Assembly (NCBI GenBank): GCA_943331105.2
Contig: CALQKH020000010.1
Coordinates: 130,298-162,297 of the forward strand
DNA length: 32,000 nt
DNA from: Akkermansia muciniphila
GTDB taxonomy: Bacteria; Pseudomonadota; Gammaproteobacteria; Burkholderiales; Burkholderiaceae_C
Direction: 5' to 3'
Shown: positions 4,896 to 26,682 of the stretch, piece after piece
How positions within the stretch are numbered: position 1 is the stretch's first letter
Layout of the letters: the number at the start of each line of letters is the position of its first letter
Notes under the pieces: generated by a model
Databases searched by the model: none
What the model saw: only the letters and a program-made list of their open reading frames with translations
Told to the model about the DNA's origin: nothing
Program-made: the position numbers and the translations under genes

Positions 4896-4919
4896 AAATA
4901 GGCATTCACGGCCCACCCC

Positions 4920-6948: not shown

Positions 6949-6949
6949 A

Positions 6950-9247: not shown

Positions 9248-9265
9248 ACAGAGACAAACAGGCTT

Positions 9266-9928: not shown

Positions 9929-9981
9929 CGGGGCTCAAGAGACCCGGAAGCAGCGTTCGACTCTGCTATGAATGTTGCTTT

Positions 9982-10007
9982 CCGGCCCGGTAGCTCGGTT
10001 GGTAGAG
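9982..10007 (+). pseudogene. Orphan 5' fragment of tRNA-Phe (acceptor 5' strand plus D-arm)
   Basis: ccggcccggtagctcGgttggtagag matches 12922-12947 of the intact gene at 25 of 26 positions. The downstream sequence cannot form an anticodon arm or a T-arm. Confidence 0.6.
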
Positions 10008-10280
10008 TACCTGACCGCATTTACGGGTACTGAATGCTACTAACGCAACAGTCGCAAGCACTTGCTGAACGATGGCACGAGGTACCTTGCAGAGCAATCA
10101 GAGTGTTTTTGGATAATGGAGCCATCGCAATTTACCTTGTGGAGACTGGCACAGCATATTTCTTTCGTTGCATCGCTCCACTTCAGTTTTGACATCATTA
10201 TTTGTCTACTGATTTGTGTAGTGCCAACCGAACGAGTTTTGTGTGTCCCCAAGCGCCAATTTTCTTTACGCTCAGCCTTG

Positions 10281-11093
10281 CTATGAAAAAAACCGTAAGA
10301 GTTTGAGTTTTGTTCGGACCATGTCAGCTAATTGATGTTGCTGCTTTTCATTCAGTGTCCGGTGCAAAGCATTTCCGTAATCACGCTTTACTTTAAGCGC
10401 TGCAGTCAGGGCGTTGAAATAGTCCAGCATGGCTTCAGGAATTTCAAGAAAATCAACGGATGGATCTGAAAGCGCCCTGGCGATATTGCTGTTGACTTGG
10501 TCGCCTTTTGCACCGAGAGCTGCCACTTGCGATGATGCATCCTGAAACAGGTTTGCAGCAGTTTTTGTCTGAGCTTCGGACATGCCAAGCTTGCGAACAT
10601 ATTCATCACTGGACAGATTTTCGATCTTGGCCAGATAGACAGAATTTTTCGTCATTGAGCTGAATGCTTTAGTAATGGTAGGGGCCATCCTTCCTCTAAA
10701 GTTCAAGCGCTGTTTTTCATCCAGACTGGCATCAAATTTTGCCCAGTGGCTTGCGATCTTATGATGGCCCATGACGGTCTCGTGTAGACGACCCTGATAG
10801 TGTGTTACCAAAACACTCGAGAGGTCAGAAAATGTGGCGTCCCTTCGGTCAATTGCCTCACTGATCGTTTGCTTGAATGATTTCTTTGTGCCACCAGTGA
10901 CGTCTGGAAATTTTTTGGTGCTCTCAATCGCCTCGTTCAATAGCGCTGTTTGTGCTTCAGTCAGATTGATTCCTCTGACTGCTACGTTCGCATCAAGGAG
11001 CAGATCATTTGTTCCTCTACCGGCATTGGTCGTCACAGAAGTCAGCGACAGAATGACGATTGCAATTGATTTCATCAGATTTAATCGAAGCAT
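10281..11093 (-). CDS. Exported protein with repeated LTXXQ-like motifs (possibly Spy/CpxP-like; function tentative)
   Basis: N-terminal signal peptide MKSIAIVILSLTSVTTNA. Motifs INLTEAQ, LDEKQ, GMSEAQ and LNEKQ. GC is lower than in the core. Confidence 0.55.
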   Translation of the reverse strand: MLRLNLMKSIAIVILSLTSVTTNAGRGTNDLLLDANVAVRGINLTEAQTALLNEAIESTKKFPDVTGGTKKSFKQTISEAIDRRDATFSDLSSVLVTHYQGRLHETVMGHHKIASHWAKFDASLDEKQRLNFRGRMAPTITKAFSSMTKNSVYLAKIENLSSDEYVRKLGMSEAQTKTAANLFQDASSQVAALGAKGDQVNSNIARALSDPSVDFLEIPEAMLDYFNALTAALKVKRDYGNALHRTLNEKQQHQLADMVRTKLKLLRFFS

Positions 11094-11335
11094 TTTTTTC
11101 CTGTTTCTTGATTTCGACCAGTATTTTTTAAATGCACAAGGGTTTGAGCATGAGGGCGAAAAACGGCGGAGTGGGCAGCCTCACTCCACGCCGTCTTGCT
11201 TCCTTGCAAGCGAATCCACAGCCGCCAAACGTCCCCTGACCAAGCGTCAATTTTATTTACGGTCAGTCACCAGCCGTAAAGCAGCACCGGACCTAACTGT
11301 GAAATCGTGAACAAGAGCAAGCTGGTACCGATGCT

Positions 11336-12517
11336 TTATTTCAAACTCGCCCACTCTGCATAAAGTGAGTAGAGTTCTGCCATGTAGTTCTCAACATTTG
11401 AGAATGCAATCAGAACTCTGTTGTTGGCATGATTCCAACCGATGCGTTGCCCCCCATGGCCCGCAGCCCAGTAGCTGTCGCGATGTTTGAAGTTATCAGT
11501 CCAAATTTGATAACCATACCCGTCAAAGTGAGCGCCAATTTTTCGTGAATTTGGTATTTGCTTTTTGACGGCTCTGCGAATGTAATCTGCGAAGCATCCG
11601 GTGCCCGATTCGTTGGCCTTGACCCATGCCGCGAACCTGATCCAGTCTTCAAGGTACATGCGAACATTTCCATCCGATGTCCCATATCCAAAGTGGTCCT
11701 GGCCGATGATGGCGGGTCTTCTGATACCGGCGGGGATCAGTACTTCTCGTTCGACATATTTGGCGTATGTTGTGCCCGTAGTCTTGTTCAGTGCAACACC
11801 GAGAGTCAGAGGGTCAGTACTACGATAGATAAACAGTTCACCGGGCTTCAAAGGGATGCCTTGACTATTTTTGGCTGCACAGGATACCTGACTTGTGGAG
11901 AGAATGTCCAAGTAAGTCATGGAACCACTGCGAACTCGCTGGTCTTGCTCCGATGTCCAAATGGTAGTGTCTGGGTTCCCGGCCCATGTGCCGGAGCTCA
12001 TTTTCAGCAAGTGCTCTATGGTCGCTTTTCCAAGATCGGTGCCAGATAACTCTGGAATCAACTTGCCGACCTCATCGTCCAGGGACATTTTGCCCTCGCA
12101 AATAGCTTTGCCCACTGCCATTGCAGTCACTGTCTTGCCAACGCTGAAGCTGAGAAATCGATTGGATGAACCAGCCGGGGACTTGTAGCCTACCCAAACA
12201 ACTTGGTTCGCATCGACGAGAGCCATCGCTTTGGCAGAAGAATGTTCAAAAAGCCGCTGTGCTTTTTCGACTATCTCTTTTTCATGACTCAATGGCGCTC
12301 TGAAAACCAATGAGGATGCAGGCTTTGCAACCCTGGTTTGGTAATGCCAAGCTTGACCATTAGATAAAAGCCATTCGTCTGGTGCCGAAGAGAACTGTCC
12401 CGAACTGGGTAATTGAGCTAACACTGTTAACGGTAAGCACATCAATGAAGCCAGTGCAGATTTCCAGAAAGCACACCTAGTCATGGCATAGGGCGCATTA
12501 ATCGTGTCAGATCTCAA
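11336..12517 (-). CDS. Beta-lactamase-fold serine hydrolase, exported (alternative start at 12484)
   Basis: Signal-like segment ALASLMCLPLTVLAQ. S-x-x-K motif in FSVGKTVTAM. YRS and GHGG motifs are plausible counterparts of the Y-x-N and K/H-x-G boxes of the class C / PBP-like hydrolase family. Confidence 0.8.
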   Translation of the reverse strand: MRSDTINAPYAMTRCAFWKSALASLMCLPLTVLAQLPSSGQFSSAPDEWLLSNGQAWHYQTRVAKPASSLVFRAPLSHEKEIVEKAQRLFEHSSAKAMALVDANQVVWVGYKSPAGSSNRFLSFSVGKTVTAMAVGKAICEGKMSLDDEVGKLIPELSGTDLGKATIEHLLKMSSGTWAGNPDTTIWTSEQDQRVRSGSMTYLDILSTSQVSCAAKNSQGIPLKPGELFIYRSTDPLTLGVALNKTTGTTYAKYVEREVLIPAGIRRPAIIGQDHFGYGTSDGNVRMYLEDWIRFAAWVKANESGTGCFADYIRRAVKKQIPNSRKIGAHFDGYGYQIWTDNFKHRDSYWAAGHGGQRIGWNHANNRVLIAFSNVENYMAELYSLYAEWASLK

Positions 12518-12923: not shown

Positions 12924-13045
<122 letters not shown>

Positions 13046-13110
13046 GGTTACAGCGTAATCACACGCTGCCAACGCTCCCTCTACTTGCTACACGCTGTGG
13101 GGCTTGCTAA

Positions 13111-14403
13111 ATGACGCAGCCACCGCAAAAGCCCCAGTATTTAGACAGCCAGCGACATGCGGATGGGCAAAATTCTGCGTTTCAAAACACCACCCTCCGT
13201 TCGTTTCTCACAGCCCTCCAACCCGCACAGCCCAAAGCCATTTACTTGCGAGACGGCGAAGTTGTTTTGTATCGCCGTAGCCGCAGTTTGCTGTACCAGT
13301 GTCGCTACCGATTGGCTGACGGCAGTTGGACGAGACAGACGACGGGCAAAGCCGCTTTAGAACACGCCATTGCCCGTGCTTGCGACATCTACGACGAAGC
13401 CAGATACCGACAACGGCTGGGTTTAGCACACCAAGCACACTCTGTCGCACAGATTGCGGCTATTTGCTGTGTTGACTTGCGGCAGCAGATTGACGCGAAG
13501 GGCAAGAAGACGGCGTTGAATGACTATCTAAGCATCATCGAACGCTACTTCGTGCCTTACTTTGGGGAGCGTCAGTTGGAGACATTGACGCACACGGACA
13601 TACGGGAGTTTGAACTGTGGCGAGATAGGCAAATGACACGCCGTCCCAAAACATCAACACTCAACAACTTCACAAGTGCTTGGAGCCGTGTGATTGAAAC
13701 GGCAGTAAGTCGTGGCTACATCTCAGAGCGTGTGCCAGTACCCAAACTCACCAGCAAAGGCGAGAAGGGCAAAACACGCCCAGCGTTCAGCAAGGAAGAA
13801 ATTGATGTGTTGTTGGAGTTTATAGAAGGGTGGAGCCAGCAAGGCAGGCTGGCTGTAGAACGCGAGATACGCCCGCTGTTGCGTGACTATGTGGAGATGT
13901 TGCTTTACACGGGTATGCGGCACGGTACGGAGGCAATGGGCATACGGTGGCGGGATTTGGAGTGGCACACAAAGGATGGTGTGCGGTATTTGCGAGTGTG
14001 GGTAGATGGCAAAACCGGCGGGCGTTGGTTGATTGCCAAGCACAAGGCAGTAGATGTGCTGCGTAGGCTACACGCGAGGCAGAAGGACATTTGCGAACTG
14101 TCGTTTGAAACGACATTCGCAGAGCGGGTGCCTCACAAGTTGTTCAGGTTCAGTGACGGCTATCAACCACCCAGTTTGAACGGCACATTCAGGCGGCTGA
14201 TGCGAGATACAGGTTTGCTGAAGAACGAGGACGGGCAGACACGCACTCTGTATTCGTTGCGGCACACCTACGCCACCTTTGAACTACTACGAAGTGGCAC
14301 TGACATACACACGCTCAGCAAGCAGATGGGCAACTCTGCGGCAATGATTGAACGGCACTACTCAAAGTTGACGGCAACTATGGCAGCGGATAAGCTTGCT
14401 TGA
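13111..14403 (+). CDS. Tyrosine-type site-specific integrase
   Basis: 430 aa. Catalytic-domain motifs LYTGMRHGTEAMGIRWRDL (Arg I), LYSLRHTYATFELL (H-x-x-R region) and MIERHYSKL (Tyr nucleophile). It is adjacent to the tRNA att site. Confidence 0.9.
   Translation: MTQPPQKPQYLDSQRHADGQNSAFQNTTLRSFLTALQPAQPKAIYLRDGEVVLYRRSRSLLYQCRYRLADGSWTRQTTGKAALEHAIARACDIYDEARYRQRLGLAHQAHSVAQIAAICCVDLRQQIDAKGKKTALNDYLSIIERYFVPYFGERQLETLTHTDIREFELWRDRQMTRRPKTSTLNNFTSAWSRVIETAVSRGYISERVPVPKLTSKGEKGKTRPAFSKEEIDVLLEFIEGWSQQGRLAVEREIRPLLRDYVEMLLYTGMRHGTEAMGIRWRDLEWHTKDGVRYLRVWVDGKTGGRWLIAKHKAVDVLRRLHARQKDICELSFETTFAERVPHKLFRFSDGYQPPSLNGTFRRLMRDTGLLKNEDGQTRTLYSLRHTYATFELLRSGTDIHTLSKQMGNSAAMIERHYSKLTATMAADKLA
14099..14115. 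repeat. Island palindrome copy 0: tgtcgtt-tga-aacgaca (inside the integrase CDS)
   Basis: Exact 7-3-7 palindrome read directly from the sequence. Confidence 0.9.
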
Positions 14404-14586: not shown

Positions 14587-16368
14587 ATGCCCTTTGAAAA
14601 AATACTAATCGCGCTAATCCGAAATACCAAATCAATTAAAGCGTTATTTTTTACCATAATTTTTTTATTGAATGCAAATTGTTATGCTCAATATATCCTA
14701 GATGACTCATTAATTGTGGGAGATAAGATTGAAGGTGTTGTAAAAATTAAAGATAACTCATCTAACAATGCGAAAATTCTAATGATTCCATTGCCGGATG
14801 GGCAGTGGAATATTCGTAAAATAGAAAGGCAAAAAGCATCTTTTTTTATAAAAGAGAATAGCATAATATACTTGGATAAAATAGAAAATAATTATGTACT
14901 TGAGTCAATCACTATTGATGTCAAGCTAACAAATAGCCCCAATTATTGCAAGCTTTATGAAAATGCTACTTATTTGAATTTGGTGTCACGGCACAGTAAT
15001 ATTTCTGATAATGCATCAGATTGTCAGGCTCTACAATTTTCCAAATCATTAAACTCCACAAATCGATTGGCTAATGAATTCAAAAAGGCGTGGACGAAAT
15101 CTGGAATTGATTGGACTGATGAGCAATATATATTAACGCATATTTATAACAGAATTCAAAATAATCAGATAATTATTTTATATTCAGCTTATATTTCTAA
15201 ACATTCAATCGCTAAAGACTGGGACTCTACCGAGCAAAATAGTAAACTGAGAAAGTGGGCCAATATCTACTATCAAACGATGATTGCAGCAATCACCAAT
15301 GATTCCAAAAGTTTAGAAAAAATATCATCATTAAGTCATCAAATAGATTCTAGATTTAAAGACCATCTTAAGTTGGTTGAAAGCGCTGCAGTGGCATTAA
15401 GCTTGAATACGGAGTCTATTGATCAAAAATTAAACTTTAATAACAACCCTTCTGTCAAACCCGATAGCTTAACGACGAACTCCAATGAGAATTATTCAGT
15501 ACCGCTGCAAACGAGCCCATCTTCTACCGCTAAGATTGATGCATTCACTCTACATGTCCCTTCGAATATTACAGAGCTAGTCAGCCCCAATCCTCAAGTG
15601 CTCTCTATTGACATTAGTACGCTTAAAAAACAGCAAAACGAGGCTGAGAAAGGAGGAGTAAACATAAAAAGTTCGAGACTTCACCAGGGATTGGCAAATG
15701 ATGACTTAAACAAACACATAAACTCATCCCGGATGAATCCCTCAACCAACTCGATGCAAGGTTTCAGCTCGAAAGAAATTAGCACTACAACCCACGTCGA
15801 ACAATCGATTCGCACTAATGCGGATAAGTCTATATCAGAAAATAAAAGTGTCAATCAGCACCGTCAGTCGATTCCTCAAGATTCAAAGGAAAAATACCAA
15901 CAACAAGTCGACGCGACTGAAGCTATAATGCAAAGCGGGAAAATATATCATTGTCTGCCAGGATATATTCTTGCCCTGCACCAAAATAAAATTAACTTTG
16001 CAGAAAAATGGAAGCTAAGAGTTAATAAACAAGAAAAAATTCCAGAAAAATTTAATGGTAGAAATAATGATGAGCTAGTTATTACTGAAGCTTGCTATGA
16101 GAATGAAAGGGCTCAATATTGGTGGGATAGTAATGTTAAAATTACCAGCAAAGGATATCATACAAGTTTAACTTCATGCGGAGATAAAATCGTATTTGTA
16201 GAAAGCGATACGAATAACAAAGGGCGTCCGACACTGTTTTTAAAAAGCCCTGGAAGGAATGCTGAAGTTTTGAGAGCAACTTGCTTTCCCGTTAATCAAT
16301 GCGAAAATCTGCCGCCTGGGCCATTTGTTAATTACGTAGCTAGCAAGTCTCTATGTCATAAAAGATAA
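14587..16368 (+). CDS. Secreted or membrane-anchored protein of unknown function, Asn/Ser/Lys-rich
   Basis: The 593-aa ORF in very AT-rich DNA is far too long to occur by chance at this composition. ggaagg lies 10 nt upstream of the ATG. Signal-like segment ALFFTIIFLLNANCYA. The C-terminal domain carries conserved cysteines. Confidence 0.6.
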   Translation: MPFEKILIALIRNTKSIKALFFTIIFLLNANCYAQYILDDSLIVGDKIEGVVKIKDNSSNNAKILMIPLPDGQWNIRKIERQKASFFIKENSIIYLDKIENNYVLESITIDVKLTNSPNYCKLYENATYLNLVSRHSNISDNASDCQALQFSKSLNSTNRLANEFKKAWTKSGIDWTDEQYILTHIYNRIQNNQIIILYSAYISKHSIAKDWDSTEQNSKLRKWANIYYQTMIAAITNDSKSLEKISSLSHQIDSRFKDHLKLVESAAVALSLNTESIDQKLNFNNNPSVKPDSLTTNSNENYSVPLQTSPSSTAKIDAFTLHVPSNITELVSPNPQVLSIDISTLKKQQNEAEKGGVNIKSSRLHQGLANDDLNKHINSSRMNPSTNSMQGFSSKEISTTTHVEQSIRTNADKSISENKSVNQHRQSIPQDSKEKYQQQVDATEAIMQSGKIYHCLPGYILALHQNKINFAEKWKLRVNKQEKIPEKFNGRNNDELVITEACYENERAQYWWDSNVKITSKGYHTSLTSCGDKIVFVESDTNNKGRPTLFLKSPGRNAEVLRATCFPVNQCENLPPGPFVNYVASKSLCHKR

Positions 16369-16404
16369 TTTTAGACAATAAAGCCATAAAGAAAGATTTC
16401 AGCG

Positions 16405-17271
16405 ATGGAAAATAGAAAGAGCTTTGCAATTGCTGCTTTTACATTGGTAATTTTATTCGCTATAAAATCGGCATCTGCTGAAACTTGGGAAAATTTTCTT
16501 TCAAAGCAGTCTAAAGAATTCAAGGAGAATATCGTTAAGGTAAATAAATTGATAGAAAAAGACAAGGTGCTGGCAAAGAGTTTTTCTGATATGAGAGGTG
16601 AGTATGCAAAATTATTGAGAAATCCAAAAATTGATAAACAATTGCTACTTCAGATAATGGATAATTTTAAATTTAGCCTTTATCAATGTGCATATGATGA
16701 TGCTGACTGCGTATTGGATGTTGTGCTTAGCATTTCCACCACCTTTAGGCTTAATAATTTAAATAATTCTCAGTGGAGTCCTCTGAATTATGTTCGGCCA
16801 TCATATAATAATCATGAATCAATTTATGATGAATATTATTCAAAGCTTAAAGAAAAAACCATAGCAGCTGAAAAACAGATTTCCAAAGCAATTAAAGAAG
16901 AAGAAATTAATAGAGCAGCAACCCTATATTCTTGTGAGCTTAAGTTTGCAACACTCAATTTTCTTATAGGAAATGATGGGATGGTTAAAATTCCAAGTTT
17001 TAAATTTAAAAGAGAGTCCAGCTCCTATGAACAATGCTACCTGCCCGGAACGCTTAAGACATCTCGAGCTTATCCGTTTAAGACTGACGGAAATAAGTAC
17101 ACATGGAAAGGAGACGATAAATTTATATCATATGAACTTGTAAAATCAGATTCTTCGAACTCATCGAAGAGTTTTCTTTACTGGGAAAATACTGACAAAA
17201 TGTCTAATCCGACGGGACTGCACAGGGGGGCATGTCGAATTATAGATGAGTGTCCATCATCATTGAGGTGA
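16405..17271 (+). CDS. Secreted protein of unknown function; its C-terminal Cys pattern resembles the preceding gene
   Basis: 288-aa ORF in AT-rich DNA. Signal peptide FAIAAFTLVILFAIKSASA. It starts 37 nt after the previous gene. Confidence 0.6.
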   Translation: MENRKSFAIAAFTLVILFAIKSASAETWENFLSKQSKEFKENIVKVNKLIEKDKVLAKSFSDMRGEYAKLLRNPKIDKQLLLQIMDNFKFSLYQCAYDDADCVLDVVLSISTTFRLNNLNNSQWSPLNYVRPSYNNHESIYDEYYSKLKEKTIAAEKQISKAIKEEEINRAATLYSCELKFATLNFLIGNDGMVKIPSFKFKRESSSYEQCYLPGTLKTSRAYPFKTDGNKYTWKGDDKFISYELVKSDSSNSSKSFLYWENTDKMSNPTGLHRGACRIIDECPSSLR

Positions 17272-17545: not shown

Positions 17546-17574
17546 AAAAAAGCCCGCTCAATGGCGGGCTTTTT
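17546..17574. terminator. Bidirectional rho-independent terminator
   Basis: aaaaa-agcccgc-tcaatg-gcgggct-tttt. A 7-bp GC-rich stem is flanked by an A-run and a T-run. It closes the leftward ATPase operon and the rightward AT-rich cassette. Confidence 0.75.
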
Positions 17575-17580
17575 GTATGG

Positions 17581-17597
17581 TGTCGTTCAAAACGACA
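17581..17597. repeat. Island palindrome copy 1: tgtcgtt-caa-aacgaca (between the terminator and the ATPase stop codon)
   Basis: Exact 7-3-7 palindrome read directly from the sequence. Confidence 0.9.
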
Positions 17598-17602
17598 TTG
17601 TT

Positions 17603-18268
17603 TTAAGGGGTGCTGGCACTCTGCTTGCGGCGGGCAAGGCGTTTGACACGGCTCATCACTTCACGCATTGAGCCATTGGCAGCGGCAATCTCAGCCGTCA
17701 ATTCAGTGTCGTTTAAAACGACATTCAAATCCGCAGCCACCTTGCGGGCAATGGGCAGCAGTTGCCCCGTGCTGGCAGCGTTCATTTCAACCAAAACGCA
17801 CCTGTCTTTGAGTCCTTTGTCCAACGACGAAATGTTGTTGGTTGTGAGAATGAAGATGGCACGCTTGGTGTTCATAACTGACTTGAGACTTTGCTGTGCC
17901 AGTTTTGACAGGTTATCCACCTCGTCCAAAACAAAGTAGTGCAAGCCACTGGCATTAAGAGAGCTCTTGCTCAGCTGCTTATCCAGCAAGGTTGTCACTT
18001 GAGGGCCATTAAATCCTTGCTGGCAGGCAATGAACTCTTCAGGCATAGCCAACTCTTTCCCTGTTCGTCCCATTTCGATACATTCAGGCAGCATCTTTGC
18101 GAGCGTGGTTTTGCCAGTGCCAAAGGCGCCGTAAAGCAGAATGCCGCACTTGCCATTGTCAGGCAGTTTCTCAAAGCTGCAAATGATGTCCTCAATGCGC
18201 AGGTAAGATTCTTCGTTGCCGTAGATGATGTCAAACGGCGTGGTAGGTGTGTAATCAATGGAAGTCAT
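17603..18268 (-). CDS. Clamp-loader (RFC / gp44 / delta-prime)-like AAA+ ATPase, 221 aa, without a collar domain
   Basis: Walker A GAFGTGKTT. Walker B FVLDEVDNL followed by AQQSL. Sensor-1 ILTTNN. SRC-like motif KDRC. GSMREV resembles the RFC GDMR box. The start is placed at ATG 18268 because of the RBS aaagga 6-7 nt upstream; the longer ORF reaching 18343 has no RBS. Confidence 0.8.
   Translation of the reverse strand: MTSIDYTPTTPFDIIYGNEESYLRIEDIICSFEKLPDNGKCGILLYGAFGTGKTTLAKMLPECIEMGRTGKELAMPEEFIACQQGFNGPQVTTLLDKQLSKSSLNASGLHYFVLDEVDNLSKLAQQSLKSVMNTKRAIFILTTNNISSLDKGLKDRCVLVEMNAASTGQLLPIARKVAADLNVVLNDTELTAEIAAANGSMREVMSRVKRLARRKQSASTP
17707..17723. repeat. Island palindrome copy 2: tgtcgttt-a-aaacgaca (inside the ATPase CDS, read as VVLND)
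   Basis: Exact 8-1-8 palindrome. It is part of the 23-bp repeat 17707-17729. Confidence 0.9.
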
Positions 18269-18290
18269 ATAAATCCTTTGTATAAAATAA

Positions 18291-18307
18291 TGTCGTTTTG
18301 AACGACA
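18291..18307. repeat. Island palindrome copy 3: tgtcgtt-ttg-aacgaca (5' leader of the ATPase gene)
   Basis: Exact palindrome 23 nt upstream of the ATPase start codon. A 7-bp hairpin acagggc/gccctgt lies beside it at 18313-18334. Confidence 0.9.
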
Positions 18308-18354
18308 GATAAACAGGGCAGTGAGCAGCCCTGTGCTGCCCACTTGCCTATTAA

Positions 18355-19083
18355 TTACGCAGCTTTCTTTTGCTCTGCGTAAAGGGCGGCAAAGGCGGCA
18401 TTGACTGCCCCGCCAGCCCGTGTAAAGCCACGCACAACAAAAGCACCTTCTGCGTTTTGTTCAGCAATCAGCAGGCAGCAATCACCCATAAACTCGCCGT
18501 CAGCCAGCAGAGACAGTGCCTCTGATTTCACAGTAGCCAGTTCAGGCATACATTCAAACTGCTGTTTCGCTGTTGCTGCTTTAATTTTGGGTTTGATGAA
18601 GGTGGCACTTTGGCTGAGGCGGATTTCTTGTATGCCGCCGTTCTGCTCAATCCACTCTGCCAGTTGTGTCGCCATAACCTTTTGCTTGATGGCTTCACGC
18701 AGTACCAGTGAGTAGGTGCTGAGGCGGCGTCTGTCCACCGCACCAAACACAGCCTTTACAACACGGGTGGCAGGTGAAGCGTCTTTCTTGTAGGAGTAGC
18801 CACGCAGTTTGTAGAAGGCTTCCAAACCAGCGTTGCGTTGCTTGGCAAGTTCAGGCGTGTCCGCTTGGGCAATGGCAAGGCATTTGGCAAGCACGGCATA
18901 CAGAGCCAGGTTGCTGGTGCGGTAAACGCCTTCTTCCCAAACAACACGCTGAGTTTCCAAATCTGCCAGCACTTTAGTCAGCGGCTGGGCAACGGCAAGG
19001 GGAGTTAAAGTAATTTCGTCGTTTTGAACGACAACGGTGGAAGTGGGTTGAGCCACAAGAGACATAGCGGTAGCATTTGACAT
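18355..19083 (-). CDS. Hypothetical protein, 242 aa, first gene of the ATPase operon
   Basis: Strong RBS aaaggagaatcct before the ATG. The composition looks protein-like, with Ala/Leu-rich segments that appear helical. I recognise no family. Confidence 0.7.
   Translation of the reverse strand: MSNATAMSLVAQPTSTVVVQNDEITLTPLAVAQPLTKVLADLETQRVVWEEGVYRTSNLALYAVLAKCLAIAQADTPELAKQRNAGLEAFYKLRGYSYKKDASPATRVVKAVFGAVDRRRLSTYSLVLREAIKQKVMATQLAEWIEQNGGIQEIRLSQSATFIKPKIKAATAKQQFECMPELATVKSEALSLLADGEFMGDCCLLIAEQNAEGAFVVRGFTRAGGAVNAAFAALYAEQKKAA
19017..19033. repeat. Island palindrome copy 4: Cgtcgtt-ttg-aacgaca (16 of 17; inside the 242-aa CDS, read as VVQND)
   Basis: Read directly from the sequence; one mismatch at the first base. 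Confidence 0.8.
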
Positions 19084-19298
19084 AGGATTCTCCTTTGATT
19101 GTCAGAATTAAAGATAAAAAAGTTAAAGAAGCAGCGTCAAAGACGCAAACACTGAGCAGTGCTGAAAACGGAATAAACCGTTGATTTTTATGGAAAAATT
19201 ATCTTGAACGGTGATTCGTTTAAGATGTATCTATTGTAAATTTTTAGGCTGATTTTGAGACCAGTTATTCATAATCGTGTAATTAGAGTGTTAAACAA

Positions 19299-20033
19299 AT
19301 GAGCATTGTTTTCAAAGCCCAGCACCCCATCTTTGGGCGGGGTAAAAAGCCGTTGGGCTTGTCCTACCAACAACGCAGCCCCTACTACTGGTGGTGGGAG
19401 TTTTTGCGGCGGAATAGGGACTACGCTGACTGCTGTGCTGCTGGTGGCACGGGGGCGTTGGCAGGGCTCTACGCTGACTTTGGTGTCGTTTCAAACGACA
19501 ACTTCAAAGAGTGGTGGACAGGGCACGGGTTCCGTCTGTTTGCGGAGCAGGCAAAGCCCGTCAAACTGTTTGAACTGGATACGCCCGCTGACTGGGATAG
19601 CTGTTGGACAAAAGACGCTGTGATGGTGGTGGCTGTGCCGCTGGATATACCCAAACGCAACCTACAGGGTTTCTTTGCCCGTTTGCTCAAAGACAGGCAC
19701 GGCGGCAAGCGTGGGCGTAAGGCACTGAGTGATGCGGACGCCAGCAACGCCCGTTATCCCTTGCACCGCAATGTCAGCATCCACACTCTGCGTATTCAAC
19801 TGGCTGTCTATGACGCTGTATTGGCAGCAAGAGCCAGTCCGAAGAAAATAACGCTGGCTCAAATTGCAAAAAGTGTAGGAATCAACCCCAAATCCAACAA
19901 AAGAACAGAGGGCGAGGTGATGGATGCGGCAAGGCGGCGTTCAGTGTTGGCGGCAACTGTCAGTCGTCACTTCAAAGATGCCCAACGCATCGTTGCCAAC
20001 ACGGCAAAAGGGCAGTTTCCCAACAGTGATTGA
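19299..20033 (+). CDS. Putative transcriptional regulator with an N-terminal WWWEFLRRNRDY motif (DUF6499/FseA-like, tentative) and a C-terminal HTH-like segment
   Basis: SPYYWWWEFLRRNRDYADCC resembles the WEFLRRN..Y signature I recall from DUF6499/DUF2285 regulators of integrative elements. ITLAQIAKSVGI looks like an HTH. It is divergent from the ATPase operon across an AT-rich 215-bp region. Confidence 0.65.
   Translation: MSIVFKAQHPIFGRGKKPLGLSYQQRSPYYWWWEFLRRNRDYADCCAAGGTGALAGLYADFGVVSNDNFKEWWTGHGFRLFAEQAKPVKLFELDTPADWDSCWTKDAVMVVAVPLDIPKRNLQGFFARLLKDRHGGKRGRKALSDADASNARYPLHRNVSIHTLRIQLAVYDAVLAARASPKKITLAQIAKSVGINPKSNKRTEGEVMDAARRRSVLAATVSRHFKDAQRIVANTAKGQFPNSD
19484..19500. repeat. Island palindrome copy 5: tgtcgtt-tca-aacgaca (inside the 244-aa CDS, read as VVSND)
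   Basis: Exact 7-3-7 palindrome read directly from the sequence. Confidence 0.9.
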
Positions 20034-20036: not shown

Positions 20037-20053
20037 TGTCGTTTAAAACGACA
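20037..20053. repeat. Island palindrome copy 6: tgtcgttt-a-aaacgaca (fills the 21-bp gap between convergent stop codons)
   Basis: Exact 8-1-8 palindrome. It is part of the 23-bp repeat 20037-20059. Confidence 0.9.
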
Positions 20054-20054: not shown

Positions 20055-20639
20055 TCAAACCAACTCAACAGCACGGCGTTTGACATCGTCATTGACGGTG
20101 ACATAACGCTGGGTTGTGGCAATGCTTTTGTGTCCAGCAAGTGCGGCAAGCACGAACACTGAAACGCCCTGTGACGCAAGACTGGTTAGAAATGTCTTTC
20201 TGCCTGAATGGCTGCTGGCATTGCTCACGCCTGCTCGTTTGTAAACCCAGTAAAAGTGCTGAGCCAGTGTGTTGGGCGAAAAGTGACGGCGGGGTCCCCT
20301 GTGTGATGGGAACAATGGCAGTTCTGGTGACTTGTTGGTGCGTGTCTCAATGTAGTCTGCCAACTCTGCCTGTAAGCGGCTGTTGATGTAAATGGTGCGG
20401 GCGTGTTGGTGTTTGACGCGATGTGCTGCCAAAAAAACCTCACTACGCACAGCCCCCTTGTTGTCCAACACATCGCCCAGTGTCAGCCCAGCAACTTCGC
20501 TGACACGCAAGCCCGCAGCAACCGTCATCATCAACATTGCCCTGTTGCGTTGTGCGTAGGGTTGCGTTGCCGTGTATGCCAAAACCGTTTGTAGTTCTGC
20601 GGGTGTGAGTGATTTTGCTGCTGCCATTTCGTGCTCCAA
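20055..20639 (-). CDS. Short (194 aa) tyrosine recombinase, catalytic domain only
   Basis: RBS ggagcacgaa before the ATG. Motifs AAGLRVSEVAGLTLGDV (Arg I), SHSGRKTFLTSL (H-x-x-R) and LAGHKSIATTQRYV (His, Tyr). There is no N-terminal core-binding domain. Confidence 0.85.
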   Translation of the reverse strand: MEHEMAAAKSLTPAELQTVLAYTATQPYAQRNRAMLMMTVAAGLRVSEVAGLTLGDVLDNKGAVRSEVFLAAHRVKHQHARTIYINSRLQAELADYIETRTNKSPELPLFPSHRGPRRHFSPNTLAQHFYWVYKRAGVSNASSHSGRKTFLTSLASQGVSVFVLAALAGHKSIATTQRYVTVNDDVKRRAVELV

Positions 20640-21499
20640 ATAATGTGCGTGAAATAAGTTTGCTTTCTTTGACGCTGGACGAGCAAGAGAAACCCGATGC
20701 TTTGGCGGGTTGATAGTGATCTGTTGAAAAACAAGAGGTTGCGTTGCCGTCCAAGTAGTTTGCGTATTCTGTTTGGTCTCGTGTATTTACACAGATGCGT
20801 GGGCAACGGGCAATGAAGTGGGCAAGAACGCTTAAAACGCCCTACAAGCGTGTGCGTGCCAGCGTCATAGTCGTAGCGGACTAGCCGCTCAAAATCACCG
20901 CGTGTAGGGCTGATTTGATGTGTTGCTGTGCGTTGCTGCCCAAATCCCATTTGCTGCTACAGAAAAATTGCTGCGTAATTTCTGCGTGATGCTGAGATCT
21001 CGCCACCTGGTGATTTGCTCTAACTGTGGTGTTGAACAAGAGTGCGGTCATACAAAAGTTTGACCGATGTATTTCTATACACCTGACGCACTCGAAAGAT
21101 GTAGGAAGATGATTTAGAGCGAACGCTGTTCGCTTGCGTATCGCTTGCCGCTCACGCAATCCGCTTCGCTTTCTGTATTTGAGATGACTGGTTTGGGAAA
21201 GTTTTGAGCAAACGACGGCTATGTCATCGCGTAGATGAACAGAAGCCGCCGTGTCGTTCTGGTCAGTGCAAAGCCCATCGCAGGACGAGATTGGAAGAGT
21301 TTGACGCGAGACGAATGTATTAAAACTCGCAATCTGCTTCTGCATTGATTTGCATTGCAGCAACTCTGCGGCTCACTCAATGCAACAAGCCTCCAATCCA
21401 ACCTGTTGCGAGTGCAGGGGCATTAGCCGTCATATTCCACCCTGCGTTTGTTCCCTTTGTTTGAGCAGTGGAGTATCTGCTGTAGTAGTGCCTGAATGT

Positions 21500-21922
21500 T
21501 TAGTGTTGTGCCAGTGCCAAATGTCGGTGCTGTTTGAATAGTTGTCTGTTGATTTTGCTGCTGATGTTGAGAACGGGATTGGCAGATGCAGGCTTGAGAC
21601 GGCAGCGTGTTCGCTTGTTGCTCATCGCCTGCTGAAACTGTTCCAGTGTCGTGCGTTGTGATTGATTCAGTAGGTTGCTGTGATGTTTGAGAAGAGCGTG
21701 TGCCTGTTGTTGTGCCTGTAGTAATCGAATGTGAGTAGTGCCAAATGTTTGAGCGTTAAAACCAGCGTCTGCCAGCCACTCGTTGGCTTTGATGGTGTCT
21801 GCTGTTTCGTATTTGCGGATTTGGTGTTGTAGTTCGTGTTTCTGCATACAAGTATTTAGCAACGACCAAACAATGCCTGTGTAAAAGTGAATGATTGTTT
21901 GGTGTGTGTGGCACTTTGACAC
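21500..21922 (-). CDS. Questionable hypothetical ORF (GTG 21922 or ATG 21847 start)
   Basis: Open frame with a Gln/His-rich sequence that looks helical. Neither candidate start has a convincing RBS. Confidence 0.3.
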   Translation of the reverse strand: MSKCHTHQTIIHFYTGIVWSLLNTCMQKHELQHQIRKYETADTIKANEWLADAGFNAQTFGTTHIRLLQAQQQAHALLKHHSNLLNQSQRTTLEQFQQAMSNKRTRCRLKPASANPVLNISSKINRQLFKQHRHLALAQH

Positions 21923-22001: not shown

Positions 22002-22442
22002 ATGACAGCACTGACAGGTTTGAAATTGACAGCAGCACAGAAGCCTACGCAGATGTCGCCAATCCAACAACGCCGCAACAAGTTGGCAAAACGCTTGTGG
22101 GAGCAGATGGAACTGGCAAAGGCAGAGCAATCGGGCACGACATTCGCTCCCAAACGCTTTCGCTCTGTCGTTCAAAACGACACGGGACAACGCATCCAAG
22201 TTGAGCAAGCCAAACGCATCAAGCAATGGTGGTTTGTTGCGGACAACGGCAAGTTGGTATTGAGCGTGAGATACGGCACCAAGTTGCTGGAACTGGCAAA
22301 GGGCAAGTGGGCAGTGGAAGTGGGCACTGAGAAAGAATTGGTGCCTACGCTGGAACTGCTGAAGAGTGCTGTGCTAGCTGGTGAGTTGGACACGCAGATT
22401 GAAGCGGCAGCCAACAAACTGCGTGAGGGTTTTGGCGGGTAA
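22002..22442 (+). CDS. Hypothetical protein, 146 aa (island-associated family, unnamed)
   Basis: RBS aaagga 8 nt before ATG 22002; the upstream part of the longer ORF looks non-coding. The sequence RRNKLAKRLWEQMELAKAE...KRIKQWWFVADNGKLVLSVRYG...GELD resembles proteins I recall from other proteobacterial islands. This has not been verified. Confidence 0.65.
   Translation: MTALTGLKLTAAQKPTQMSPIQQRRNKLAKRLWEQMELAKAEQSGTTFAPKRFRSVVQNDTGQRIQVEQAKRIKQWWFVADNGKLVLSVRYGTKLLELAKGKWAVEVGTEKELVPTLELLKSAVLAGELDTQIEAAANKLREGFGG
22166..22182. repeat. Island palindrome copy 7: tgtcgtt-caa-aacgaca (inside the 146-aa CDS, read as VVQND)
   Basis: Exact 7-3-7 palindrome read directly from the sequence. Confidence 0.9.
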
Positions 22443-22549: not shown

Positions 22550-22738
22550 ATGCGTATTGACGAAATCATCCGAAAACCCATTAAGCCCAAGCCACCGATG
22601 AACCCCGCCCAAGCCCGCATCCACAGCCTCAAGCAAGGCGTAGAGCGTAGCAAGGAACAACTACGAACAGAACGCGAGCGACAACGACAGCAGCGTGAGG
22701 CAGAACGCAAACGCAAGCAGATGCAGCAACGCTTCTAA
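22550..22738 (+). CDS. Small basic Arg/Gln/Glu-rich protein, 62 aa, hypothetical
   Basis: ATG 22550 begins MRIDEIIRKPIKPKPPMNPAQARIHSLKQGVERSKEQLRTERERQRQQREAERKRKQMQQRF. The charged heptad-like tail suggests a coiled coil. The RBS is weak. Confidence 0.4.
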   Translation: MRIDEIIRKPIKPKPPMNPAQARIHSLKQGVERSKEQLRTERERQRQQREAERKRKQMQQRF

Positions 22739-22988: not shown

Positions 22989-23079
<91 letters not shown>

Positions 23080-23089
23080 TTTTGCGCCC

Positions 23090-24013
23090 TCACGCGTCCT
23101 GCAGCATCCCGCCTTGCATTTGCACAGCCCCGCTGCGTTCCAACTCGGCCAGCATCATGTCCAGCCAAGTCTCCAAAGTCAGGCCTTGGGCAAAGCGCTG
23201 GTGCAGGCTGTGCAGATAGGGCACGCGGGTGGCCCAGTCGCTGAACTCGGCTTTGGAGATCTGGCCCCATTCCAGCAGTTTGAACTTGAGCAGCACTTTG
23301 GCGCCATAGCGGGCGTGCCGCTCGGGGTTTTGGGCAAAGCCGTTGAGCTTGCTGCGGGCCAAGGCCAAGGCAGGGGCCAGTTCTGTGAACACCGCGCCGT
23401 GGCCAGGAATGATGGTGGCTGGATTCAGGTGCTCAATCAGGTCCAGCGTTTGCGCCACTTCGTCGAAGGCGTCCACGCCTTCGAGCTCCGGAAACACCAC
23501 GCCAAAGCCGTTTTGCCAAAGAGCGTCAGCCGACATCAACAAGCGGTGCTCGGGGGCAAACAAGATGACCGAGTGCGGGTCGTGTCCGGGTGCGGCGTGC
23601 ACTTGCCAGTCCATGTCTCCCCAGCGGTGGGTGCTGCCCGGTTGCAGCAAGCCATTGAAGCGAAATGCAGGGCAGTTTTGCCCCGTGGGTTTGTAGCTGA
23701 GTGCGTCTTCAGTCCAATGCTGTATCGCCTGGGCCAGCCCGGGTGGGATCCAGGTGTGCAGCTCGGGGTAATGCGTTTGCAGCGCATGGTTGCCGCCGCA
23801 GTGGTCGCTGTGCAGGTGGGTGTTGACCAACAGATCAAGCGACCGACCTTGTAAGGCATGTTGCACCAGCGCCAGTGTCTGCGCTTGGTGTTTCACATAA
23901 CCACTGTCGACCAAAGTGGCGCCTTCGGCGCCTTGCAGCACGACGTTGTTGGCCGACAGCCAGCCGCGTTCGAGCACGGTCACGCCCGAAGGCAGGAAGC
24001 TGACGCGGGTCAT
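23090..24013 (-). CDS. MBL-fold metallo-hydrolase
   Basis: H-x-H-x-D-H motif in VNTHLHSDHCGG, with downstream His/Asp residues (PGHD, PGHG). GC is at core level. Confidence 0.85.
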   Translation of the reverse strand: MTRVSFLPSGVTVLERGWLSANNVVLQGAEGATLVDSGYVKHQAQTLALVQHALQGRSLDLLVNTHLHSDHCGGNHALQTHYPELHTWIPPGLAQAIQHWTEDALSYKPTGQNCPAFRFNGLLQPGSTHRWGDMDWQVHAAPGHDPHSVILFAPEHRLLMSADALWQNGFGVVFPELEGVDAFDEVAQTLDLIEHLNPATIIPGHGAVFTELAPALALARSKLNGFAQNPERHARYGAKVLLKFKLLEWGQISKAEFSDWATRVPYLHSLHQRFAQGLTLETWLDMMLAELERSGAVQMQGGMLQDA

Positions 24014-24016
24014 GCT

Positions 24017-25702
24017 TTATTTGCTGGTGCGCAGTTCGCGGCGCAAGATTTTGCCGACGTTGGACTTGGGTAGTTCGTCGCGGAACTCGATGTATTTTGG
24101 GCGCTTGTAGCCGGTCAGATTCTCGTGACAGAAACGGGCCACGGCTTCTTCGGTCAGCATGGCGTCGTTGCGCACCACAAACACTTTGATGGTTTCGCCC
24201 TGCATGGTGTCGGGGATGCCCACAGCGGCGCATTCGACCACACCGGGGCAGGTCGAGATGAGGTTTTCCAGCTCGCTGGGGAAGACGTTGAAGCCGCTGA
24301 CAATGATCATGTCCTTTTTGCGGTCCACGATGCGGGTATAACCTTGCTCGTCCATGATGCCGATGTCACCGGTGCGCATGAAGCCGTCTGCGGTGAAGGT
24401 CTTGGCGTTTTCAGCGGGCTGGTTGTAATAGCCGGTCATGACGTTGGGGCCGCGGATGCAGATTTCACCCGAGCTGCCTACGGGCAAACTTTGACCATCG
24501 TCGTCCTTGATGGCGATGTCGATGCCCGGCAGGGGCAGGCCAATGTTGCCACTGAAGGTTTTTTGCGTGACCGGGTTGTTGGTGCCGATCGCACAAGTCT
24601 CGCTCATGCCCCAGCCCTCGATCATGGCGCTGCCCGTGGCGTTTTGCCAGTTGCGGGCGGTGCCCTCCGAGGCGGCCATGCCGCCTGCCTGCGTGAGCTT
24701 GAGCGAAGAAAAGTCAATCGACTTGAACATCGGGTGCTGCATCAGCGCGTTGAACAGGGTATTGACCCCGGGCAGCAGATGGAAGGGTCGCTGCTTGAGC
24801 ACCTCGATGAACTTGGCAAAGTCACGCGGATTGGGCACCAGGGTGAGGAAAGAGCCTTGGCGGATGGCCAGCAGGCACAGCGTCAGGGCAAAGATGTGGT
24901 ACAGCGGCAAAGCCGCGATGTTGTTCACTTTGCGCAGGTCTGGCACATCGGCCAAAGCGGGTGAAAACCAGCCTTCGGCTTGCAGCATGGCCGCCACAAT
25001 GTTGCGGTGGGTGAGCACAGCACCTTTGGACAAACCGGTCGTGCCCCCCGTGTATTGCAAAAACGCGATGTCGTCCATGGTTTGCGCAGTGGGGCGCAGA
25101 TTCAGGCTGCGGCCTTGGCCGATGGCTTTTTTGAAGGGGGTGACGGTACGACCGTTGGTCAAGGGCAGCTCAAAAGGCGGCACCATTTTGGCCAAGTGGC
25201 GCACGGCAAACGTCAGCCAGCGGCCATTGATGGGCCCCAGCAAATCGCCAATGGAAGCCAGCACGATGTGTTTGACGGAGGTGCGTTCAATCACTTCTTG
25301 CAAGGTGGCGGCAAAGTTTTCCAGTATCACGATGGCGCTGGTGCCGGAGTCCTTGAGTTGGTGTTCGAGTTCCCGTGGCGTGTAAAGCGGGTTGACGTTC
25401 ACGCAGGTGTAGCCCGCCCGCAAAATTGCGGCCATGGTGACAGCAAATTGCGGCAAGTTAGGCAGCATGATGGCCACGCGACTGCCGGGCTCAAGTCCTT
25501 TGTTTTGCAACCAAGCCCCCAGCGCGGTCGACAACTCGTCGAGCTGTTTGTAGCTCATCCAGCGGTTCATGCACACCGAGAAAGGGTTGTCGCCGTGTTC
25601 GCGAAAGGCCCTTTCAATTAAATCGGTCAGGCTTTTGTATTGTTCTGTGTCGATGTCGTGGGGCACACCGGCTGGGTAATTCTTTAGCCAAAAACGATCC
25701 AT
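24017..25702 (-). CDS. fadD: Long-chain-fatty-acid--CoA ligase (AMP-binding family)
   Basis: 561 aa. AMP-binding signature LQYTGGTTGLSKGAVLTH. Also GWGMSET, TGDIG and the C-terminal LPKSNVGKILRREL. Confidence 0.88.
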   Translation of the reverse strand: MDRFWLKNYPAGVPHDIDTEQYKSLTDLIERAFREHGDNPFSVCMNRWMSYKQLDELSTALGAWLQNKGLEPGSRVAIMLPNLPQFAVTMAAILRAGYTCVNVNPLYTPRELEHQLKDSGTSAIVILENFAATLQEVIERTSVKHIVLASIGDLLGPINGRWLTFAVRHLAKMVPPFELPLTNGRTVTPFKKAIGQGRSLNLRPTAQTMDDIAFLQYTGGTTGLSKGAVLTHRNIVAAMLQAEGWFSPALADVPDLRKVNNIAALPLYHIFALTLCLLAIRQGSFLTLVPNPRDFAKFIEVLKQRPFHLLPGVNTLFNALMQHPMFKSIDFSSLKLTQAGGMAASEGTARNWQNATGSAMIEGWGMSETCAIGTNNPVTQKTFSGNIGLPLPGIDIAIKDDDGQSLPVGSSGEICIRGPNVMTGYYNQPAENAKTFTADGFMRTGDIGIMDEQGYTRIVDRKKDMIIVSGFNVFPSELENLISTCPGVVECAAVGIPDTMQGETIKVFVVRNDAMLTEEAVARFCHENLTGYKRPKYIEFRDELPKSNVGKILRRELRTSK

Positions 25703-25862
25703 TTACTTCTCTCCTGATGGTGGGCCATTGTGACCAGCTTGAAGGCTGTTCGGTATCGGGCAATTCCCCAGTGTCAGTGGTGCAGGTCTCAGATGCGACA
25801 AAACCCGAAACAGACGTGGCCGTCGCAATGGATGCAAAATAAGTAGTAACCCTAGGACTCGC

Positions 25863-26612: not shown

Positions 26613-26682
26613 CGCCCAGGTGTCATCCGATTCCGCTATCCTTGCAGCTTCGCCTCAACTGCATGTCCTGCAAACCTAGACC

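Follow-up and report, generated by a model that had tools for sequence, protein, structure and literature searches.

The AAA+ ATPases of the clamp-loader clade are understood almost only as pentamers, which are held together by a collar and open sliding clamps. Here we describe an operon in which an ATPase of this clade is encoded without the collar. The operon lies on a small integrative island in a stretch of 32,000 nucleotides (nt) of contig CALQKH020000010.1 (assembly GCA_943331105.2), hereafter called the window, and encodes an orphan protein of 242 amino acids (aa), named p242 in this study, followed by the ATPase of 221 aa; a short palindrome is repeated in and around both genes. As judged from the profile, fold and neighbourhood searches described below, the pair represents a new collar-less branch of the clamp-loader clade together with an orphan partner, carried by a new family of integrative islands.

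The closest described proteins are the RFC small subunit, T4 gp44 and the gamma and delta-prime subunits of E. coli. The ATPase aligns end to end with domains I and II of these proteins and possesses their boxes II, III (Walker A), V (DEVD), VI (AQxSLKxxMN), VII (DRC) and VIII (GSxR). It differs from them in having no collar (domain III), so that no canonical pentamer is possible, in being one subunit type with no clamp, polymerase or delta/gp62-type partner, and in having its gene on an integrative island beside that of an orphan protein, with scores far under the family cut-offs. RarA (MgsA, WRNIP1) is likewise a member of the clamp-loader clade which works outside the clamp-loader pentamer, but it is about 450 aa long and has a C-terminal tetramerisation domain that is missing from the ATPase. 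With respect to gene arrangement the operon resembles lambda O/P, DnaA/DnaC and IS21 IstA/IstB, in which the protein for the DNA site comes first and an ATPase of ~220-250 aa comes second. The lambda ori lies inside O, and the palindromic sites of the island similarly fall partly in the first gene of the pair, which we use as a working analogy and not as a sign of kinship. On the other hand, the clade of DnaC and IstB is that of the initiators, lambda P falls outside the AAA+ proteins, and the sites on the island are scattered and form no origin-like array. MuB, TnsC and TniB also have no collar and form ATP-gated oligomers on DNA, and on their mobile elements a separate protein recognises the site and guides them; these ATPases serve DDE transposases, whereas the island has tyrosine recombinases only. 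The OB sites of KorB (RK2) and the repeats of SopB (N15) are, like the island palindrome, short palindromes in ~8-12 copies which lie partly in genes, and each of these sets serves a single element-encoded binding protein. Their partner ATPases are however ParA-type and not AAA+, and no ParB-like protein was detected here. The module of pair and palindrome fits no described system, as the original prediction, which was made from the bare sequence of the window, had supposed; our literature searches on the island-encoded DUF6641 protein, on clamp-loader-like proteins on islands and on Polynucleobacter islands gave no description of this element.

The ATPase and its family

The original prediction had claimed a two-gene operon encoding a 242-aa protein and an AAA+ ATPase, and both open reading frames (ORFs), which lie on the minus strand, are as it described them. 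The ATPase ORF is open over 17603-18343 from a GTG, the real start being the ATG at 18268 with AAGGA ahead of it. All the motifs that had been listed for the ATPase were seen, namely Walker A (GAFGTGKTT, residues 47-55), Walker B (LDEVD, 114-118) followed by AQQSL (124-128, RFC box VI), sensor 1 (TTNN, 142-145), DRC (155-157) and sensor 2 (GSMR, 199-202), and, in addition to these, P-x-x-F-D-I-I-Y-G-N at residues 8-18 resembles RFC box II. When HMMER was used to align the ATPase with human RFC2, the motifs paired with GPPGTGKTT, DEAD, AQQAL, ACN, SRC and GDMR, with R156 of DRC aligned to the R of QSRC, that is, the SRC arginine finger. When 50 diverse members, 26-57% identical to the query, were aligned, G47, G50, G52, K53, E116, N144, R156 and R202 were found to be invariant, and D115, D118, T142 and T143 were at least 90% conserved.

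The chain ends at residue 221, past the lid, and covers residues 10-208 of the 319 of the RFC small subunit, in agreement with the claim that the protein stops short of the collar. An exhaustive search of 1.84 billion representatives (E<=1e-10) yielded 273 ATPase clusters at 50% identity, nearly all of 205-260 aa, and the missing collar is a fixed trait of a large family and no truncation. Since hundreds of diverged clusters keep both the length and the catalytic residues, decay of the ATPase is excluded. Because the residues for ATP hydrolysis and the arginine finger, which acts in trans, are kept, the ATPase must work as an oligomer, and because the collar is absent it cannot use what holds clamp-loader pentamers together. 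By its sequence, the ATPase is a catalytically competent, oligomer-dependent, RFC-small-subunit-like AAA+ protein which has been cut down to the core plus lid. Tandem ATPase-ATPase fusions also occur naturally, in a few members of 416-489 aa: P0253, P0256, P0263, P0272 and P0295 each gave two matched stretches in the representative search, and pairwise alignment of P0256 displayed two collar-less ATPase copies in tandem in one polypeptide. Tandems of the P0256 type would seem to be natural evidence for protomers working side by side.

Profile and fold searches upheld the placement in the clamp-loader clade. Pfam returned generic AAA only. Among the PHROGs, 'clamp loader of DNA polymerase' (PHROG 168) matched at 1.2e-19, with residues 5-213 of the ATPase on profile positions 14-212 of 314, and among the NCBIfam models RFC small subunit (3e-12) and DnaX N-terminal (1.5e-10) matched, both far under their curated cut-offs (46 bits against 303 for RFC small subunit and 41 against 250 for dnaX_nterm; holB scored 20 against 181). 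A profile built from 50 members matched, in the PDB, the archaeal RFC small subunit (2chg) at 8e-25 over positions 5-212 and T4 gp44 at 4.5e-16; the best 60 PDB matches were inspected, and no RarA, RuvB, DnaC, MuB or TnsC chain was among them. Similarly, the top 50 Foldseek matches in the PDB of the AlphaFold2 (AF2) model, which has a predicted local distance difference test (pLDDT) score of 68, were all chains of clamp-loader complexes or isolated clamp-loader-type subunits. These results place the ATPase, as far as profiles and predicted folds can tell, in the group of the RFC small subunit, T4 gp44 and E. coli gamma; neither kind of search assigned it to the RuvB, RarA or transposition-ATPase families, to which it might have belonged by the original prediction's own account.

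Other identities were also tried and rejected. For RarA/MgsA, there was no match to the MgsA C-terminal Pfam domain, the protein has 221 aa, and RarA was absent from the best 60 PDB matches. RuvB_N matched at E=0.06 over the P-loop only and RuvB_C was unmatched. No IstB_IS21 or DnaC-type Pfam family appeared at E<=1, and a DnaC-like PHROG match (3.7e-4) covered only residues 11-58, the Walker A region. For TniB/TnsC/MuB, the island has no transposase, and the match to AAA_22 was weak, with its best stretch at residues 43-61 (P-loop). PADLOC gave no specific defence model for the ATPase and only weak generic AAA matches, the best being TRIP13 (1.9e-6). The automatic names found in public records (Joint Genome Institute auto-annotation), 'DNA polymerase III delta prime subunit' or 'RarA', are unsupported by the domain and threshold tests.

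The partner protein p242

A word-indexed search found 545 homologues of p242. Its family is as unrecognised as had been claimed: neither the single protein nor 36 diverse members searched one by one had a match in Pfam, PHROG, NCBIfam, PADLOC or the PDB sequences, and Foldseek of the AF2 model gave no match in the PDB (best E 0.73) or BFVD (best E 0.15). In this model (overall pLDDT 70) a disordered tail of residues 1-30 precedes an eight-helix domain (about residues 35-177, pLDDT 85-90 across most of 61-160), and the C-terminus forms a small alpha/beta domain of low confidence. The family alignment revealed a family-wide core of WE..Y..SN..LY, then TRVVKxVFG-x-DRRRxS(T/A)YSxxLR, then GGVQEIRL, the second of these being the most conserved segment of the protein. 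Its basic DRRRxSxYS part reads like a helix-turn-helix and might be one. ParB, ribbon-helix-helix or any other recognised centromere-binding fold was not detected in p242 by Pfam, fold and PDB profile searches. The idea that p242 supplies the missing collar found no support in the same Foldseek searches of the PDB and BFVD.

Conserved pairing of p242 and the ATPase

We collected 62 loci (given below by their L numbers) from context look-ups of close homologues, a genome match in Polynucleobacter sp. MWH-HuK1 and a scan of metagenomes for which distant ATPases were the seeds, and the core proteins of the window were searched with BLAST against all ORFs of these loci. In all 50 loci having both genes, the p242 homologue was directly upstream of the ATPase gene on the same strand, with a spacer of 50-130 nt, and the pairing persisted to about 30% identity. 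The ATPase matches without a partner were cut off at contig ends (L021, L033 and L042), or were collar-bearing relatives of ~320 aa and 26-30% identity (L054-L057 and L059), or, in L062, distant, partial and at a contig end. The loci with the pair also hold the divergent 244-aa gene, the short recombinase, DUF6641 and the integrase. Averaged over the distant loci, identity to the window was 51% for DUF6641, 49% for the short recombinase, 44% for the integrase, 41% for the ATPase, 37% for p242 and 32% for the 244-aa protein; the pair keeps a fixed place relative to these genes and diverges along with them. Because the neighbours are the same and the pairing is conserved across 50 loci, the pair is regarded as part of the core, and p242 and the ATPase appear to form a core life-cycle module and not a cargo or defence insert. 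The neighbourhood survey that the original prediction had called for thus found the pair conserved together and, with it, the palindrome in every related element examined. The element stands for a family of small islands that integrate at tRNA genes in freshwater Betaproteobacteria and that had not been described before. No clamp, polymerase or wrench subunit was found among the called genes of the related loci.

The ATPase had been called translationally downstream of p242, which is right in that its gene follows that of p242, both being co-oriented, and imprecise in that the two are separated by a spacer, of 86 nt in the window, which contains a GC-rich hairpin. This hairpin is retained in most related elements (L002-L060) with varying sequence, for example GGGGCTAC..GTAGCCCC and GGTGGTGGC..GCCACCACC, and could possibly be an attenuator or a messenger RNA stabiliser which sets the p242:ATPase ratio. 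The terminator claimed for the operon is present and bidirectional, and a matching hairpin with a T-run is found 3' of the ATPase gene in most related loci. The divergent promoter region between p242 and the 244-aa gene is conserved at the nucleotide level in about 10 related loci.

Two gene orders occur in the family. Compared to the window and L003-L020, the block of the fseA-like 244-aa gene, p242 and the ATPase is inverted relative to the short recombinase and DUF6641 in L023, L024, L031, L032, L035 and L060; in L023 copies of the palindrome are seen at both ends of the inverted block, and in the other inverted loci at the junction of ATPase and short recombinase. L035 further contains an apparent second, inverted module (9015-11521), with a second fseA-like match at 10625-11521, a 260-aa ORF in which the palindrome falls at relative position 0.10, and a 228-aa ORF with two palindromes after it. 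If genuine, this module would mean tandem or nested elements.

The island palindrome

The palindrome has the form GTCGT-(5-7 nt)-ACGAC and is 15-17 nt long. The pattern GTCGTTYWRAACGAC, with one mismatch allowed, matched 8 times in the window, where shuffled sequence gave an expectation of 0, and each of the copies falls within the island as bounded by its 91-nt direct repeat. Three copies had been thought to frame the operon; we counted four (19018, 18292, 17708 and 17582), the one at 17708 inside the ATPase ORF having been missed, and the copy formerly assigned to the start region (19018) lies within the coding region of p242. Four of the five intragenic copies read GTC GTT nnn AAC GAC, encoding V-V-x-N-D. 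Variants seen in the family are GTCGTG...CACGAC, hybrid arms and GTCCTT...AAGGAC, again of 15-17 nt in total.

The positions of the copies recur as well. In 31 scanned loci, window included, a copy lies in the p242 ORF, nearly always at relative position 0.06-0.20. The copy in the ATPase ORF recurs at relative position 0.83-0.86 in close and distant elements (L018, L043, L048 and L051), and, counting the window, 12 scanned loci have one in the integrase ORF, which is at ~0.77 in the closest relatives and at ~0.13 in other loci. Copies also recur adjacent to DUF6641 and alongside cargo genes. In p242 the palindrome falls in the otherwise unconserved tail, where it is encoded as VVxND, VVKND or VVQHD. 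In a codon alignment of 10 p242 genes (50-90% protein identity) it formed the most nucleotide-invariant 15-nt window of the gene, with 13 of 15 positions invariant compared to 28% gene-wide. Nucleotide invariance within a variable tail implies selection on the nucleic acid itself. The usual symmetry of the centre would favour a dimer bound to duplex DNA, and the occurrence of 5-7-nt spacers within a single element would favour a stem-loop or a flexible binder.

Two further ideas about the palindrome were dropped. The p242 residue after Y124 differs in three elements of the GTCC type, but as a clue to the binder this is confounded by common descent and was not used. Cassette exchange at the palindrome was also rejected, as the cargo breakpoints lie beyond the terminator on the ATPase side and at the integrase stop codon on the other. 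In two elements of the Polynucleobacter type (L002, 13247-20681, and L020, 5933-10399) palindromes are present also past the integrase, beside further ORFs; the extra copies of L020 are mostly at ORF 3' ends, and the L002 stretch holds an LlaMI-type restriction gene. The palindrome appears to extend beyond the seven core genes.

Distribution

No match to p242 was found in 72,556 plasmid records and 50,697 phage records, nor any relative in 2.9 million viral contigs. The ATPase had no match in the plasmid records, and the phage records gave only true clamp loaders of <60% identity; its relatives in the viral contigs reached only 22-35% identity, as true phage clamp loaders do. The palindrome was present in 12 viral contigs, in single copies only. 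The results from viral contigs, phage records and plasmid records argue weakly against the lifestyle of a phage satellite. A pattern-based scan of genomes of representative species, which is insensitive and no measure of host range, detected two carriers, Polynucleobacter sp. MWH-HuK1 and a Burkholderiales metagenome-assembled genome.

Possible functions of the pair

We tentatively propose, as a possibility more than an expectation, that p242 is a site adaptor and the ATPase an ATP-gated, DNA-bound oligomeric switch, and that the two serve the replication or maintenance of the excised island. p242 would bring the ATPase to the island DNA, where ATP binding would let an ATPase oligomer build up, as is the case with the matchmaker AAA+ proteins (clamp loaders, DnaC, MuB and TnsC). 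The oligomer would in turn recruit or load host replisome parts, either the beta clamp or DnaB, and the excised island would thereby be replicated or kept. The pair would then act in the initiator-plus-loader role which lambda O/P or DnaA/DnaC fill elsewhere, and the activator-like 244-aa neighbour would turn the operon on. Since the core has no further gene that can be recognised as one for replication, transfer or packaging, the role in replication or maintenance would otherwise be unfilled. The link to DNA is supported by the palindromes at conserved positions in and around the operon, and the regulatory context by the divergent 244-aa gene with the WEFLRRN motif of FseA.

A good deal weighs against this proposal. 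We found no sign in support of island replication after excision, the island has no iteron array, and its DnaA boxes are not enriched but at chance level; the palindromes are dispersed, with spacings of 126-3482 nt, and form no origin-like cluster. To our knowledge, ATPases of the clamp-loader clade do not act as helicase loaders, and we know of no working clamp loader that consists of a single collar-less subunit type. A clamp-binding motif was not evident in p242 or the ATPase when these were read by eye. That p242 binds DNA is suggested by the character of its sequence, and its model has no known DNA-binding fold. The best-conserved proteins of the family are the short recombinase and DUF6641, p242 being less so, and the palindrome may belong to these two while the pair may act elsewhere. 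The kinship of the neighbour with FseA and RovC, for its part, consists of the motif and a sub-threshold Pfam match. More broadly, the collar-less clamp-loader module and its orphan adaptor could constitute a new ATP-driven DNA machine working at a scattered, element-specific palindrome or hairpin, for example by loading host replisome parts at hairpin junctions or by switching the tyrosine recombinase or a partition-like complex. This is speculative, and we are inclined to doubt it; if true, it would be a function not known for a protein of the clamp-loader clade and would define a new and abundant family of freshwater mobile elements.

The short recombinase, which is catalytic-domain-only, a fixed neighbour and better conserved than the pair, brings recombination into consideration. 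The palindromes would then be sites of this FimB-size enzyme or of the integrase, and p242 and the ATPase would be an accessory or control unit which assembles on the DNA to activate, direct or dismantle the complexes of site-specific recombination, in the manner of FtsK activating XerD or of MuB/TnsC guiding a transposase. Conserved outer arms with a variable centre of 5-7 nt are also seen in the core sites of tyrosine recombinases, and in the six loci named above palindromes coincide with ends of the inverted block. Nevertheless, we know of no tyrosine recombinase that needs an AAA+ partner, a recombinase core site would usually have arms longer than 5-6 bp, the cargo breakpoint on the ATPase side lies past the terminator and away from the palindrome, and several copies lie within essential core ORFs, where recombination would destroy genes; we consider this account unlikely. 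An improbable account too, in our judgement, is that of a nucleoprotein organiser or global regulator, in which one partner would sit on the dispersed palindromes, as KorB does on RK2 OB or SopB in N15, and the ATPase would remodel or spread the complex, with the effect that island genes are silenced or activated or the excised circle is partitioned. It would suit the 8 dispersed copies, which occur at conserved positions at the boundaries and inside of every core transcription unit; a protein bound to the copy 50-70 nt into the p242 ORF would be a roadblock there, and an operon of an ATPase plus a partner resembles a partition operon. It has to contend, however, with the fact that no partition or KorB-like system with an AAA+ ATPase of clamp-loader type is known, with the negative result for centromere-binding folds in p242 and with the divergent promoter region, which itself has no palindrome.

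As the closest sequence relatives of the ATPase are real clamp-loader subunits, including those of the phage gp44 type, and as mobile islands often carry defence genes, the pair might, as the original prediction had suggested, be directed at the replication machinery of host or phage, with the truncated subunit binding or unloading the host beta clamp or poisoning a phage clamp loader, in defence or in replisome takeover. We regard this as very unlikely, since the pair is core, occupies the same position in all elements and diverges with the integrase, and since PADLOC gave it no specific model; moreover, the conserved arginine finger and full catalytic set argue against a passive decoy, and there is no sign of clamp-contact residues or clamp-binding motifs. 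That we are dealing with an ordinary clamp-loader or RarA-type gene, or with a decaying phage remnant, is suggested by the automatic public names and by the sequence similarity to clamp loaders, and is hardly credible. The ATPase has 221 aa instead of 320-450 aa, it has neither the collar nor the MgsA C-terminal domain, its scores stay far below the curated cut-offs, no clamp or polymerase gene is nearby, and hundreds of diverged clusters keep the length and catalytic residues. By the length, domain and threshold tests the reading as an ordinary clamp-loader or RarA gene is refuted.

The family described here is large and diverged, keeps the catalytic core and the arginine finger, has an obligate orphan partner and is found only in a small integrative element. 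If its action were worked out, this would reveal the capabilities of a bare clamp-loader module on DNA, and could explain how these islands of Polynucleobacter-type Burkholderiales, which have integrases and no recognisable replication, transfer or packaging genes, replicate, persist or move. It could also explain a DNA site conserved strongly enough to persist in four different coding sequences. A cultured carrier exists in Polynucleobacter sp. MWH-HuK1.

The island and its other genes

The coordinates of all features are given in Table 1. The 91-nt direct repeats are 99% identical and lie 10,034 nt apart from start to start, which gives an island of 10,034 bp; with an integrase, a tRNA target, direct repeats and AT-rich cargo it is an integrative genomic island. 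Its gene order is integrase, two cargo ORFs, ATPase, p242, 244-aa gene, short recombinase, ~115-aa ORF, DUF6641 and a small basic ORF. In agreement with the original prediction, domain and profile searches of all island ORFs detected no domain of a clamp, polymerase, helicase or primase, and the PriA gene at 29249-31354 is a host gene outside the island. Rfam matched the tRNA only.

Table 1. Features of the island and its integration site (positions are those of the window)
Feature	Position	Strand	Evidence or remark
tRNA-Phe (GAA), integration target	12924..12999	+	ARAGORN; Rfam tRNA 68 bits
Left 91-nt direct repeat (tRNA 3' end and downstream sequence), left island end	12955..13045	+	Repeat search
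Large tyrosine integrase, 430 aa	13111..14403	+	Pfam Phage_integrase, Phage_int_SAM_3
Palindrome in integrase ORF	14100..14114		Frame differs from other intragenic copies
Variable cargo, two AT-rich ORFs (593 and 288 aa)	14587..17271	+	GC 33-40%
Bidirectional rho-independent terminator, ends p242-ATPase operon	17548..17575	both	GC stem and T-run, AAAAAGCCCGCTCAATGGCGGGCTTTTT
Palindrome directly 3' of ATPase stop	17582..17596		Same position in 20 scanned loci, window included
ATPase, 221 aa, AAA+ core and lid, clamp-loader clade, collar-less	17603..18268	minus	Profile and fold searches, invariant catalytic residues
Palindrome in ATPase ORF (VVLND, residues 184-188)	17708..17722		Pattern search
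Palindrome in p242/ATPase spacer, 24 nt upstream of ATPase start	18292..18306		Pattern search
GC-rich stem-loop in p242/ATPase spacer	18313..18334	minus	Terminator-like site
p242, orphan partner, 242 aa	18355..19083	minus	ATG with AAGGAG ahead; homologues, family alignment, AF2 model
Palindrome in p242 codons 18-22 (VVQND)	19018..19032		Pattern search
AT-rich divergent promoter region, p242 / 244-aa gene	19084..19298		Sequence; minus-strand promoter-like match
Divergent 244-aa gene, WWWEFLRRN motif	19299..20033	+	Sub-threshold Pfam PF20109
Palindrome in 244-aa ORF (VVSND)	19485..19499		Pattern search
Palindrome between convergent 3' ends, 244-aa gene / short recombinase	20038..20052		Same position in 21 scanned loci, window included
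Short tyrosine recombinase, 194 aa, catalytic-domain-only, FimB/FimE-sized	20055..20639	minus	Pfam Phage_integrase 7.8e-28, whole protein
~115-aa ORF, divergent from DUF6641	21500..21847	minus	Same place in L007 and L012 (42-48% identity) and L010 (26%)
DUF6641 protein	22020..22442	+	Pfam PF20346 2.7e-12; start uncertain, ORF opens 21891; in related loci
Palindrome in DUF6641 ORF (VVQND)	22167..22181		Pattern search
Small basic ORF, ~62 aa, downstream of DUF6641	22550..22738	+	L003, L006, L007 and L009 have homologues of 65-80 aa in this place
Right 91-nt direct repeat, right island end	22989..23079	+	Repeat search

FseA activates the excision and transfer genes of ICEMlSymR7A, and an AWEFLRRN helix is the hallmark of its DUF6499 domain, common to RovC (PMC10359603). 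The 244-aa protein resembles both in its N-terminal WEFLRRN-type motif, its similar size and its position on a mobile element. PF20109 matched it at 17.7 bits, under the threshold of 23.8, and was found in 5 of 22 family members; there was no match to DUF2285, the C-terminal helix-turn-helix domain of these activators, and the family profile matched no PDB sequence at E<=1, RovC (6xz5) included. The motif and the sub-threshold match point, to a limited extent, to an activator-like neighbour akin to FseA and RovC. The FseA box, of which the hexamers are spread over 28 bp (PMC10359603), differs from the island palindrome of 15-17 bp.

The short recombinase matched XerA/XerD-like and tyrosine-type DNA invertase models of NCBIfam. 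Nucleotide conservation with relatives runs ~350 nt upstream of its gene (20640-21000), where there is no convincing ORF; a leader, a regulatory region and a cis site are all conceivable for this stretch. The ~115-aa ORF, for which Pfam gave no match, looks like an additional core gene. A distant DUF6641 protein (29% identity) is encoded on plasmid pAB510d of Azospirillum sp. B510 (L146, 421641-422090), where it adjoins a site-specific integrase, and DUF6641 may be an integrase-associated factor more widely, e.g. a directionality factor.

The cargo ORFs had no match in Pfam, NCBIfam or PADLOC and no nucleotide similarity to related elements, and their GC content of 33-40% compares with 51-66% in the host flanks (1-10000 and 23001-32000). 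Their products abound in N, K and S, have hydrophobic N-termini and may be secreted or surface proteins. The cargo of related elements varies and comprises OmpA-like genes, a beta-lactamase-fold gene and an LlaMI-type restriction system. The integrase homologues of the related loci are 408-489 aa long. Within the direct repeats we also noticed a 19-nt motif, GCAAGAGGCTGTGGGGTTT, at 13018-13036 and 23052-23070, of which a third copy, 79% identical, is located at 13087-13105, just upstream of the integrase start; it may be an integrase arm site or a regulatory site.

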